Source of the DNA: a virus
Taxonomy: Duplodnaviria; Heunggongvirae; Uroviricota; Caudoviricetes
Virus record (IMG/VR): IMGVR_UViG_2671181019_000012
Location: 1 to 20,910 of that record
Strand: one strand, 5' to 3'
Length of the DNA stretch: 20,910 nucleotides
Part shown: positions 10,616 through 12,992 of the stretch, piece by piece
Layout of the letters: each line of letters starts with the position of its first letter
Position numbering within the stretch: position 1 is the first letter of the stretch
The notes under the pieces: model-generated
The model's database searches: none
What the model was told of the DNA's origin: nothing
What the model saw: the letters and a program-made list of their open reading frames with translations, nothing else
Position numbers and translations under genes: made by a program

Positions 10616-12019
10616 TCAAGATTTTTTACTGCCAGTTAAACTATCACCCTCAAACTCATCCTGTTCGTGGTTAGTCTGACGATCGGCTGTGTGTTTACGT
10701 ATTTGATTCGCTATTTCCCCACCAACGGTCTGTTGTCTTCGGATAGTATTAGTACTTCCCTTCATCATCTGATACTCCGAAGCTCCGTTAGACAACCCGC
10801 TCGCCATGTGAGAAGCCATGCGGCCAGCTCGTGAGAATGATGAAGCAAACCCCTGGCTTCCTCCGCTGACGCTACCTGTATTACTCCCTGCAGAAGAACC
10901 ACCGGAACCGCCTGATGGTTGTCCTCCAGAAGTATCTACGGAACCGGTATCTTCCCCTCCGCCAAATCCTCCACCTGAACCACCTTTATCACCAGAACCA
11001 GATTCTTCGGCCATCGCCGCTTGTGCAGATTCAAATGCTGCTTTTAGAGCGGAAGCACCACCACTGACTTGAGCTGTAGCACTTATTGCCATTGCCCCAG
11101 CGCCACTGATTGCAGTAGTAGCAGCGCCAGTAATCATACCTGCTCCAAAACCACCGATCCCTTGTAAGGACGCTCCTCCAACAACGCCTGATAACAACAA
11201 CGGTAATTTATTCGTCAATACTAAAAGAATAATTGACGCCAGAAGTAAAACAATAAGACTATTAAGATCAGGAATATCATTTTTAATAATAGAAAAATAC
11301 TGATCTATAAATGATTGCCCAATCCCAATGATTAATGTCATCGTAAATAACTGAATACCAATCGATAATACTGTGCGTAAGTAATTTATTGCTATATCAG
11401 AAGTCCATTTCGAGCCACCAAACCCAAGCAAAATAACTCCTGCATAACACAACACCCATGCAGAAACTAACATTATTAGCATATTTATCGCGATAAGCGC
11501 CATTACTACTAATACTATTATCGCGACGGTTATCATAATGGTCGAAATCATTGGAGACCAAATTGATGCTGCTGAACTGACCTTTGTTAATATCACAAAT
11601 GCCATATCCACTATGCTGGAGGGTGAAATACCAGTACTTGTTCCTAAAGCATTTGCTGCAAGTTGTCTCATTGAGTTAATTATAGATTGTGATATGGCTG
11701 GGCCGTTGATTAAAAGATAATAAAAAAAACCAATCACGGCAAAAAAACGAACTATTTCTGCAAGTGCACTGATTAAACCTTCCCCTTGCATCGCCAACAT
11801 ACCAAATGTCCAAACCATACTTATTAATACCACCCCCCAGAAGAGCCAATTTGCATAATCACCAATTACTAATGACCATGTGCTGGCTACTTGCTGAAAC
11901 TTATCTAATAACGTATCAAGTAATCCGCTACTATCTAATTGACCAGCATAAGCATTTACAGAAAACAAAAAAAACATTCCTAAAAAAGTGAGCTTGCTTA
12001 CTATTCTCATAATTACCAT
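10616..12019 (-). CDS. trbL: TrbL/VirB6-like type IV secretion inner-membrane protein
   Basis: Signal peptide, several TM helices, long Gly/Ser-rich C-terminal tail; start overlaps trbK stop (ATGGTAA). Confidence 0.8.
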   Translation of the reverse strand: MVIMRIVSKLTFLGMFFLFSVNAYAGQLDSSGLLDTLLDKFQQVASTWSLVIGDYANWLFWGVVLISMVWTFGMLAMQGEGLISALAEIVRFFAVIGFFYYLLINGPAISQSIINSMRQLAANALGTSTGISPSSIVDMAFVILTKVSSAASIWSPMISTIMITVAIIVLVVMALIAINMLIMLVSAWVLCYAGVILLGFGGSKWTSDIAINYLRTVLSIGIQLFTMTLIIGIGQSFIDQYFSIIKNDIPDLNSLIVLLLASIILLVLTNKLPLLLSGVVGGASLQGIGGFGAGMITGAATTAISGAGAMAISATAQVSGGASALKAAFESAQAAMAEESGSGDKGGSGGGFGGGEDTGSVDTSGGQPSGGSGGSSAGSNTGSVSGGSQGFASSFSRAGRMASHMASGLSNGASEYQMMKGSTNTIRRQQTVGGEIANQIRKHTADRQTNHEQDEFEGDSLTGSKKS

Positions 12020-12186
12020 TCTCGCTTAGGGCTAGGATTGTTATTGCCACGCAGGGCACATTTATCGTAGTTATGTTCGTTCAATTTATTCTCTGGCGTC
12101 GATAAACAATCTTCATCTTTTTTATCGCAAGAGCATAGAATTAATGAAATTATTAGAATAAAAATGACCAAAAGTTTATCTTTCAT
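12013..12186 (-). CDS. trbK: TrbK-like small lipoprotein (entry-exclusion candidate)
   Basis: 57-aa ORF not in the ORF track; GGGAG RBS; hydrophobic N-terminus ending LILCSC; position between trbJ and trbL as in IncP Tra2. Confidence 0.5.
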   Translation of the reverse strand: MKDKLLVIFILIISLILCSCDKKDEDCLSTPENKLNEHNYDKCALRGNNNPSPKREW

Positions 12187-12197
12187 TCAGCTCTCCC

Positions 12198-12992
12198 TCA
12201 CCAAATTCGCTTCGGGCTTGGTGTGTTCTCGCCAGCTAACGCTTTTTCATCAGCGACTATTTGTTGGGCTTCTTTATCAGCCTCAGCCTGTGCCAGTGTT
12301 GCTGCAGCGTTTTGCTGAGCTACCAGAAGCGAGCGGATTTGCAGCAACTGGTTCGTTTGAGCACTGGCAAGCTGGTTAGCGGCCTGAATAGCTTCCATTT
12401 GCCCTTGTGCGCCGGTTGCCTGCGTTTGTAAATCTGCAAGGTTGTCAGCATCGCTTTGCAGTGTTTCCTGCTGTTCGTCAAGAGCCTTAAATACAGCGTC
12501 ATTGGCCTTTTTACGTGCCTCAGAGCTGTTCTGTTCAGCTTTGCGCAGTGCGCTAATTTCATCCGCAGTACATTCAACATTACTGTTAAAGCACGGTGAT
12601 GAGCGGTAGTAATTCACGTCCTGATAACGTTTCAGATATGAATCAAGACTCCCGGCCTGGTTTTTGTAGTAATTTAGGGTGTCCTGCGCCTGCAACAATT
12701 TGTTGATGGTCGAATTGGCCTGATCCCAGATATAGGCTGCAGGTGCGACTGTATTTTTGAGCATGTTTTCATACTGCTGCAGCTGCGTCTGGTACTGCTG
12801 GATCTGTTTTGCCACAGCCTGAACGTTGTTGACTGCGCTGATTGTGGTCTGCACCACATTAGTACCATCGATTACAGGGATACCGGCTGTCGCCGGTAAT
12901 GCCATGATGGACGCCAGGAAGGAAGCAGCTAATGATTTTTTAGCTGCTAAAATCCCTCTCAGTGATGAAAATACTCGGAGCATTAACTTCAT
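12198..12992 (-). CDS. trbJ: TrbJ/VirB5-like conjugal transfer protein
   Basis: Signal peptide then GIPVIDGTN and Q-rich coiled coil (QIQQYQTQLQQYENMLKN) typical of P-type TrbJ. Confidence 0.75.
   Translation of the reverse strand: MKLMLRVFSSLRGILAAKKSLAASFLASIMALPATAGIPVIDGTNVVQTTISAVNNVQAVAKQIQQYQTQLQQYENMLKNTVAPAAYIWDQANSTINKLLQAQDTLNYYKNQAGSLDSYLKRYQDVNYYRSSPCFNSNVECTADEISALRKAEQNSSEARKKANDAVFKALDEQQETLQSDADNLADLQTQATGAQGQMEAIQAANQLASAQTNQLLQIRSLLVAQQNAAATLAQAEADKEAQQIVADEKALAGENTPSPKRIW

Follow-up and report, generated by a model that had tools for sequence, protein, structure and literature searches.

A stretch of 20,910 nucleotides, catalogued as virus record IMGVR_UViG_2671181019_000012 and referred to here as the window, is a piece of the E. 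coli chromosome and contains nearly all of a mobile element of ~13.6 kb. The element is an integrative mobilizable element (IME) inserted in the tRNA-Thr gene thrW. It carries trbJ, a trbK-like gene and trbL (positions 10616-12992) next to traJ and an IncP-type origin of transfer (oriT). On balance it is probable that the three trb genes form a mating-pore and exclusion module: the island would borrow relaxase, coupling protein, ATPases and the other mating pair formation (Mpf) proteins from a helper plasmid, remodel the pore of that plasmid and evade its exclusion. The likely helpers are enterobacterial IncP-1-like conjugative plasmids of 40-70 kb, for example pIso00199_02 and pJJ1886_4. Pore remodelling and a role in exclusion had been suggested in a preliminary description of the window; the sequence pattern, in which a helper-like oriT and TrbJ core stand beside a cassette seen on islands alone, supports this suggestion.

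The trbJ, trbK-like and trbL genes

The trbJ gene (12198-12992, reverse strand) encodes a VirB5-like protein of 264 amino acids. It scores 381.8 bits against NCBIfam NF010452 (cut-off 286) and also clears TIGR02780 (183.6 bits against 100.55); its match to Pfam T4SS is weak. The trbL gene (10616-12019, reverse strand) encodes a VirB6-like protein of 467 amino acids, with 267 bits against NCBIfam TIGR02783 (TrbL_P; cut-off 128.85) and 103 bits against Pfam PF04610 (cut-off 25.9). Both proteins score above the curated cut-offs, and the TrbJ and TrbL assignments of the preliminary description hold under this profile check.

Between them lies the trbK-like gene (12013-12186, reverse strand), which encodes a predicted inner-membrane lipoprotein of 57 amino acids. 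Its proposed membership of the TrbK family is borne out in part. The open reading frame (ORF) occupies the place of trbK between trbJ and trbL and has the length of helper-family TrbK; its signal peptide ends in the lipobox LILCSC|D, with Cys followed by Asp (compare ITAC|D in helper TrbK); and its C-terminus, NNNPSPKREW, fits the tail rule derived below. Family profiles do not add to this: the protein matches no TrbK profile in Pfam or NCBIfam, is 23% identical to the nearest plasmid TrbK (that of the helper) and has no plasmid match by tblastn against PLSDB.

All three ORFs are intact. Within the island lineage they are under purifying selection across synonymous divergence (pS) of up to 0.5; the ratio of non-synonymous to synonymous divergence (pN/pS) is 0.06-0.15 for trbJ, 0.10-0.20 for the trbL N-domain and 0.16-0.52 for trbK. 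Profile searches and annotation reveal no VirB4 or VirB11 ATPase, coupling protein, relaxase or further Trb gene between the left attachment site (attL) and thrW. The lack of ATPases, coupling protein and other Trb genes, first noted for the window, therefore extends beyond it.

Mosaic structure of the module

Codon-by-codon comparison of the island module with pIso00199_02 shows a mosaic. Amino acids 39-218 of TrbJ are 100% identical to those of the helper (pN = 0, pS 0.10-0.39). Synonymous divergence is saturated (pS 0.7-0.95) in the last ~20 residues of TrbJ, in the whole of TrbK and in amino acids 1-331 of TrbL; for the last 16 codons of trbJ, pS is 0.79. Amino acids 1-331 of TrbL make up the N-domain, which is the membrane domain, and are 55-60% identical to helper TrbL. 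The sequence then becomes helper-like again, with ~89% nucleotide identity over amino acids 332-391.

An anciently diverged cassette, here called type C and seen on islands alone, is thus formed by the C-terminal tail of TrbJ together with TrbK and the membrane domain of TrbL. No full trb operon of type C was seen in PLSDB, in the species-level loci, in the protein clusters or in the genomic contexts checked. The best plasmid TrbL among the PLSDB matches listed is 58.5% identical. Among 5.8 billion proteins, type C TrbK makes up 17 clusters, confined to Enterobacterales, and each genomic context checked is a guaA- or thrW-type island.

The helper family itself holds at least two further cassette types. 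Within a type the TrbL N-domain is 97.5% identical and between types it is 50-57% identical; the TrbJ core stays 91-98% identical across the cassette types. In E. coli, Shigella and Enterobacter islands, the TrbJ core follows that of the local plasmids (93-97% nucleotide identity, zero to five amino acid changes); in other type C islands it is at ~86% nucleotide identity. Since the core tracks local plasmids and the cassette is diverged, exchange with plasmids appears to keep the core matched and the cassette private. A helper-identical TrbJ core joined to an island-only tail, TrbK and TrbL N-domain is the pattern expected if the module remodels the pore and changes its exclusion specificity.

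The C-terminal tails of TrbJ and TrbK

All P-type loci examined share a type-specific likeness between the C-terminus of TrbK and the C-terminal tail of the cognate TrbJ. This was scored for 78 TrbJ/TrbK pairs from P-type loci (L002, L005-L012 and L013-L092), which fall into 16 tail types. The mean tail score is 54.1 for cognate pairs, 18.9 for non-cognate pairs and 16.5 for shuffled tails; in a permutation test, none of 100,000 permutations reached the observed cognate sum. The rule holds in 16 of the 16 types, and the cognate TrbK is ranked first in 13 of them.

In the window the two tails are encoded at 12198-12260 (TrbJ) and 12013-12050 (TrbK). The island TrbJ ends in ENTPSPKRIW and its TrbK in NNNPSPKREW. 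The corresponding TrbJ and TrbK tails are TYTKSPAQSW and EFTKSPEKKW in pIso00199_02, SYRASPSKTW and GFKPSEKKEW in the IncP-alpha plasmid R702, and DILKHPYRRGQ and DVLKRPYKRKE in a plasmid of N. gonorrhoeae. GIsul2 has MRTWTFRPSPADNY and MRQWEFKPSPKDDY, and islands of Burkholderia have QLRDGSNITTPTPKNWSFQ and QLHDGSNIIIPSPKNWSW. In a single-sequence AlphaFold model of island TrbJ, the final nine residues lie beyond the last helix, are non-helical and have low pLDDT. This model is of moderate quality (pLDDT 69) and was used solely for the tail being non-helical.

When the TrbJ tails of L013-L092 and of the plasmid loci are clustered at 60% identity or more, no cluster mixes full operons with orphan modules, a separation that is confounded by phylogeny. 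The classical G-Y-R-x-S-P-x-x-x-W cluster contains 24 loci, all of them full trb operons. Clusters composed of orphan modules only are NWLELTR (30 loci), type C (nine loci) and PKNWSFQ (five loci).

Since this copying of the TrbJ tail by the cognate TrbK runs through all P-type systems examined, the tail is probably what determines exclusion specificity. Exclusion requires the C-terminus of TrbK, and IncP TrbK is stated to have no known partner on the donor side (PMC8923210). Recipients are protected against RP4 by TrbJ as well as by TrbK (PMC11045733); in the Ti system, TrbJ and TrbK both contribute to exclusion in recipients (PMC3907764). The tail rule would account for exclusion being conferred by TrbJ, and not by TrbK alone, in the RP4 and Ti systems. 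In an IncP-1 plasmid, trbJ and trbK-trbL are separated by a phylogenetic break (PMC3104523), and in the R388 structure VirB5 sits directly on VirB6 (PMC9259494). No mention of the likeness between TrbJ and TrbK tails was found in the literature searched, which left out Haase 1996, Lyras 1994 and Cho 2009.

A broader account can be built on these tails, and is offered tentatively, as somewhat less probable than even. The active part of P-type TrbK would be its C-terminal peptide, which would copy the flexible TrbJ tail and co-evolve with it; the tail, probably read by TrbL or by the TrbJ pentamer, would be the specificity determinant of IncP exclusion that has long been sought. Islands that combine a helper-identical core with private cassettes would hide helper pores from helper exclusion. 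The present island might in addition exploit or titrate the helper's replication initiator and neutralise addiction toxins.

traJ, oriT and the oriV-like region

The preliminary description listed three transfer genes. These are present at 10616-12992; it had missed traJ and oriT (13074-13600), which adjoin them and are part of the module. The traJ gene (13074-13439, reverse strand) lies directly upstream of trbJ and encodes a NikA-like, oriT-binding accessory protein of the relaxosome (Pfam NikA-like, 6e-23; NCBIfam TraJ, 161.8 bits against a cut-off of 134). Island TraJ is 63% identical to helper TraJ. The oriT (13457-13600, forward strand) is of IncP type and contains an inverted repeat (13501-13552) and the motif ATCCTG|C (13548-13554), which is the nic motif of RP4; it also matches the Rfam traJ-II RNA with 93 bits. 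The nic motif and the nic-proximal arm of the repeat align without difference to the oriT of pIso00199_02. Over traJ and oriT together, blastn identity is 73%.

An oriV-like region without a replicase gene is located at 14229-14422 (reverse strand). It consists of three TrfA-type iterons spaced 22 bp apart (14304-14369), a perfect DnaA box (14414-14422) and an AT-rich flank. In reverse complement, the island repeats read ATGACAT(A/T)TGAGGTACG; the plasmid TrfA iterons read ATGACATATGAGGGGCG. In PLSDB the region matches solely the oriV of the enterobacterial IncP-1-like family (109 records, 77-81% identity, E ~1e-20). Two iterons in Enterobacter quasiroggenkampii (L014 6628-6690), the closest relative with the same integrase, are exactly the plasmid core TGACATATGAGGGGC. 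RK2-type iterons are also carried by related islands, including GIsul2 and a Shigella PIME1 (L015 7088-7125; L012 5144).

Profile searches found no Rep domain in any ORF of the island and no Rep or TrfA gene; tblastn found no RepA, RepC or TrfA match in the closest relatives, L013 and L014. Pseudomonas islands with the same family of 97-amino-acid regulator (L025, L026 and L073) have a TrfA-like protein (26-30% identity) encoded between the regulator gene and traJ. This suggests that a sublineage with a TrfA replicon existed, from which the window island may have lost its replicase. The iterons may permit TrfA-driven replication of the excised circle, or may titrate TrfA; both ideas are speculative. 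An iteron-bearing oriV could also underlie the reduced amplification of the helper plasmid reported for a PIME1.

Predicted helper plasmids

The helper was predicted from the island sequence: three features, its trbJ gene, oriT core and oriV-like region, lead to one and the same plasmid family. Plasmids of this family carry trfA, kor, kle, trbB-N and traI/J/K. MOB-suite types them as IncP, rep_cluster_1368 or 2175, with MOBP and MPF_T. Of 5,426 E. coli genomes, 63 have the family, always on plasmids and never on a chromosome. Helper-family TrbJ is about 56-57% identical to the TrbJ of classical IncP-1 plasmids.

Proposed function and alternatives

In the proposed mechanism, the island would stay in thrW until a plasmid of the helper family arrives. 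By analogy with PIME1, it would then be excised by its integrase together with the 97-amino-acid protein, and its oriT would be nicked by the helper relaxase acting with island TraJ. Island TrbJ and TrbL would replace the VirB5 and VirB6 stalk subunits of the helper, the TrbJ core being kept helper-identical so that TrbJ still fits the machine. The type C tail and the TrbL N-domain would alter the feature that is recognised by TrbK and TrbJ of the recipient; a type C pore would then go unblocked by helper TrbK and TrbJ in plasmid-bearing recipients. Island TrbK would serve for self-exclusion, acting on type C pores alone.

Several observations weigh against this proposal. Phylogeny confounds the split of tail types between islands and plasmids, and shared inheritance of the tail, trbK and 5' trbL could reflect linkage alone. 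Island TraJ, at 63% identity, is not close to the TraJ of its predicted helper. Helper and island were not seen in the same strain when 60 of the 63 helper strains were compared with the ~25 island strains listed, a null result that is uninformative at a helper prevalence of 1.2%, where fewer than one overlap is expected. PIME1 EcRHB23-C07 was excised yet not mobilized with the IncP-1 plasmids pB10 and pKJK5, and PIME1 MmNCTC12028, unlike SGI1, did not lower co-transfer of its helper (bioRxiv 10.64898/2026.01.12.698999). EcRHB23-C07 is the nearest relative with a published test, and may share the type C module, as a Shigella PIME1 does. The limited likeness of helper-family TrbJ to that of classical IncP-1 plasmids may explain why pB10 and pKJK5 led to excision of this E. 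coli PIME1 and not to its mobilization.

The module could instead be an entry-exclusion device directed against plasmids, in which chromosomal TrbK and TrbJ block IncP-like plasmids and no pore is remodelled. Such a role would agree with the protection that TrbJ or TrbK alone gives recipients against the RP4 type IV secretion system (T4SS), with the contribution of both proteins in Ti and with the other defence cargo of the island. We nevertheless think it unlikely. The island tail type is unlike every plasmid type seen, so it should not confer cognate exclusion of resident plasmids; TrbL, for which no requirement in recipient exclusion is known, is nevertheless conserved under purifying selection (pN/pS 0.10-0.20); and the module is physically joined to traJ and oriT, which is a donor function. 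A further alternative is that the island needs the module for its own transfer, or that the helper benefits from it: TrbJ and TrbL would adapt the helper pore to the island relaxosome, or complement or boost the helper, independently of exclusion. A PIME and its helper have been shown to cross-complement at the level of the relaxase, TrbJ and TrbL are indispensable to the pore of related plasmids, and the TrbJ core is kept identical to that of the helper. Adaptation of this kind leaves two facts unexplained, namely that TrbK, which is dispensable for transfer, is kept in nearly all orphan modules, and that the cassette stays diverged while its flanks homogenise with the helper; this alternative, too, is unlikely.

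Decay has also to be considered, as three of ~11 Mpf genes remain, the neighbouring vbhA is frameshifted in this strain and the oriV-like region has lost its replicase gene. The genes would then be a functionless remnant of an integrated IncP-like plasmid or integrative and conjugative element (ICE). This is highly improbable and was rejected: none of the three ORFs is broken and all show purifying selection, about 57 of the 80 species-level loci retrieved have the same orphan layout, a functional-looking oriT is attached, and attachment-site repeats and an integrase bound the element. Pore remodelling with altered exclusion specificity is the reading that we favour.

Insertion site and boundaries

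The left end of the island is marked by attL (7988-8037, reverse strand), an orphan copy of the 3' 48-50 nucleotides of thrW. Its sequence is identical to the 3' part of thrW at L003 30026-30077 and has no second match in the window. RefSeq places a 112-nucleotide 'tRNA-Ser' at 7989-8100 (L001 19990-20101, L003 16406-16517), which consists of the thrW 3' fragment followed by island DNA; this label is probably an annotation artefact. A tRNA-Ser attachment site is ruled out, as the fragment derives from thrW and ARAGORN calls no tRNA genes in the window.

The right end is visible in the near-identical island of strain E54, where the gene at the window end is followed by ~700 bp of non-coding DNA and then by intact thrW, proA and proB. 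In strain ES6, yagP and paoD form the left flank. CP4-6 of K-12 occupies the same site, thrW. The remaining trb genes, which might have been located beyond the window, are absent there: what follows is thrW, proA and proB in E54, and yagP/paoD flank the island in ES6. An ICE with its other trb genes outside the window is ruled out, since thrW, proA and proB adjoin the element end. The features that define a self-transmissible ICE (a complete T4SS, a coupling protein and a relaxase) were not found inside the element.

The island is present at 99.6-99.8% identity in 47 of 5,426 complete E. coli genomes. Its backbone (7971-~15380) is kept at 95-99.8% identity among E. coli; the cargo to the right of ~15380 differs.

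Positions 1-7974 of the window are the early-left arm of a lambdoid prophage, with a cI-like S24 repressor, an N antiterminator, a Dam methylase and an integrase (6811-7974). This arm stops 14 nucleotides from attL, and prophage and island form a tandem array at thrW. Their two integrase genes share a strand and have the tRNA fragment between them.

Other genes of the island

The island tyrosine integrase (8096-9199, forward strand) matches Pfam Phage_integrase at 1.6e-26. Its orthologues, at 82-92% identity, flank orphan trbJKL modules in Enterobacter, Paraburkholderia, Burkholderia and Pseudomonas. It is followed by an ORF for a predicted membrane protein of 296 amino acids (9209-10099, forward strand), which has no family match. 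Upstream of traJ, a 97-amino-acid ORF (13710-14003, reverse strand) encodes a putative excisionase or regulator in the position of AlpA, a role assigned from position alone. Homologues of this ORF (45-92% identity) lie upstream of traJ-trbJKL in related islands; it has no match to Phage_AlpA or to any other Pfam or NCBIfam family. The 57-, 70-, 97-, 296- and 420-amino-acid ORFs match nothing in Pfam and NCBIfam even at E = 5.

Two antitoxin genes are without their toxins. An orphan VbhA-family antitoxin gene (10086-10313, forward strand) is annotated by PGAP in ES6 and E54; alignment shows that, in this strain only, loss of one nucleotide from a T-run shifts its frame. In its unbroken form it has 42% identity to helper-family VbhA. 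An orphan HigA antitoxin gene (14701-14958, forward strand; NCBIfam TIGR02607, 65.9 bits against a cut-off of 47.7) encodes a protein 51% identical to HigA of the helper plasmid, and no ORF for a HigB toxin was found upstream of it. The two antitoxins may act as anti-addiction modules that blunt the toxins of the helper, which is speculative. Homopolymer tracts lie between the oriV-like repeats and higA, namely G12 (14505-14516) and, just upstream of the higA start, A8G7 (14684-14698); these could be prone to slippage.

A further toxin-antitoxin locus adjoins trbL. PtaRNA1, an antisense antitoxin RNA, is recognised at 10540-10612 (forward strand; Rfam RF01811, 48.6 bits against a gathering score of 47, E 2.8e-7). 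The match overlaps the 5' end of a 70-amino-acid ORF (10334-10546, reverse strand), a candidate for its type I toxin partner. In GIsul2 and in pSE5381-aadB, a mobilizable Pseudomonas plasmid, a 'ptaRNA1 family toxin' is likewise located downstream of trbL. The trbJKL genes and the PtaRNA1 toxin-antitoxin locus look like a conserved block.

The non-coding stretch 15051-15272 is 78% identical to the region just downstream of helper-plasmid traX (L002 17093-17315), and 94% identical over 32 nucleotides. A DinQ-like toxin ORF was sought beside it and not found. A scan for promoters and terminators performed no better than chance.

Variable cargo occupies 15614-20910 (reverse strand) and encodes a 420-amino-acid protein of unknown function, an MltR-like regulator (17124-17651; Pfam MtlR) and a three-gene candidate defence system. 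The three genes (18166-18843, 18830-19909 and 19909-20910, reverse strand) match PADLOC Hp3, Hp2 and Hp1 at E values of 3e-80 to 5e-176; the window copy has no Pfam match. In a related metagenome thrW island (L097), the first gene of a three-gene cluster at the same position carries Pfam PDDEXK_GAPS4. The right-hand cargo of other E. coli islands includes Shedu, Ite, dynamin-like and other systems.

Comparison with known systems

Orphan trbJ-trbK-trbL genes were described in GIsul2 and in the 'IncP island' by Guedon et al. 2017 (PMC5704250), who proposed an IncP helper for these elements and suggested that, as in SGI1, the IncP pore is reshaped for invasion of plasmid-bearing cells. Elements named PIMEs were reported in a 2026 preprint, which catalogues 1,136 of them and leaves the role of trbJKL unexamined; the PIME1 elements show IncP-dependent excision, replication and mobilization, and require their integrase and regulators for excision (bioRxiv 10.64898/2026.01.12.698999). 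Both the element class (GIsul2, the 'IncP island' and the PIMEs) and the idea of pore remodelling (2017) have thus been published. In a scan of one genome per species, the 80 TrbJ loci comprise ~57 orphan modules and 23 full trb operons. Within this recently described and very widespread class of plasmid parasites, which spread defence and resistance genes, the island itself is an ordinary case. Its nearest relatives are the thrW-type islands L013 and L014 of Enterobacter, followed by guaA-type PIME1 islands of Shigella, Erwinia, Dickeya, Citrobacter and Phytobacter, which have the same TrbK and TrbL type.

Like the PIMEs, the island is a chromosomal IME with an integrase, a small regulator, traJ and an IncP-like oriT, trbJ-trbK-trbL and a large defence cargo. 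Integrase, trbJ, trbL and an IncP-like oriT, by which PIMEs are recognised, are all present within its attachment sites on the chromosome. It shares the type C cassette with the PIME1 guaA islands of Shigella, Dickeya, Erwinia and others (TrbL 90-94% and TraJ ~83% identical), and its core genes run opposite to the integrase, as in the PIME4 layout. Unlike the PIMEs, it lies in thrW, has an unrelated integrase, lacks a LuxR gene and has no Pfam AlpA match. It also lacks repA and repC, one of which is part of the PIME core definition, and has a TrfA-type oriV without a replicase instead. The search made in the PIME preprint would have missed the present island.

GIsul2 and the 'IncP island' of B. 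glumae share with the island the orphan trbJ-trbK-trbL genes and a downstream toxin-antitoxin locus of PtaRNA1 type. GIsul2 also obeys the TrbJ/TrbK tail rule and carries an exact RK2-type iteron. It differs in having IncQ-type repA and repC, AlpA and a guaA-type integrase, in lacking traJ, and in its tail type and its TrbL, which is ~45% identical. The 'IncP island', unlike the present one, encodes its own relaxase.

The likeness to islands that substitute helper pore subunits, drawn in the preliminary description, is apt: the element lacks a relaxase and encodes homologues of helper Mpf proteins, as do SGI1 and the IncA/C-dependent islands. In SGI1, TraN, TraG and TraH replace the helper subunits and allow escape from helper entry exclusion (PMC5704250). 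This substitution was shown experimentally, whereas that of the present island is inferred from sequence. SGI1 also differs in that its proteins are unrelated and belong to an F-type mating apparatus (P/T-type in the island), and in that it has its own replicon. The Tra2 regions of RP4/R702 and of the IncP-1-like pIso00199_02 have trbJ, trbK and trbL in the same order and of the same sizes, with a small Cys-Asp TrbK lipoprotein. In the plasmids these genes are embedded in trbB-trbN, whereas island trbJ directly follows traJ; the combination of tail, TrbK and TrbL N-domain found in the island is on no plasmid searched.

Three points go beyond the literature consulted. A concrete candidate helper is named, which bears on the excision of the RHB23-C07 PIME1 without mobilization. 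The island is a natural mosaic that separates a helper-identical TrbJ core from an island-private cassette. Finally, the copying of the TrbJ tail by TrbK is a general and statistically strong rule, and provides a testable hypothesis.

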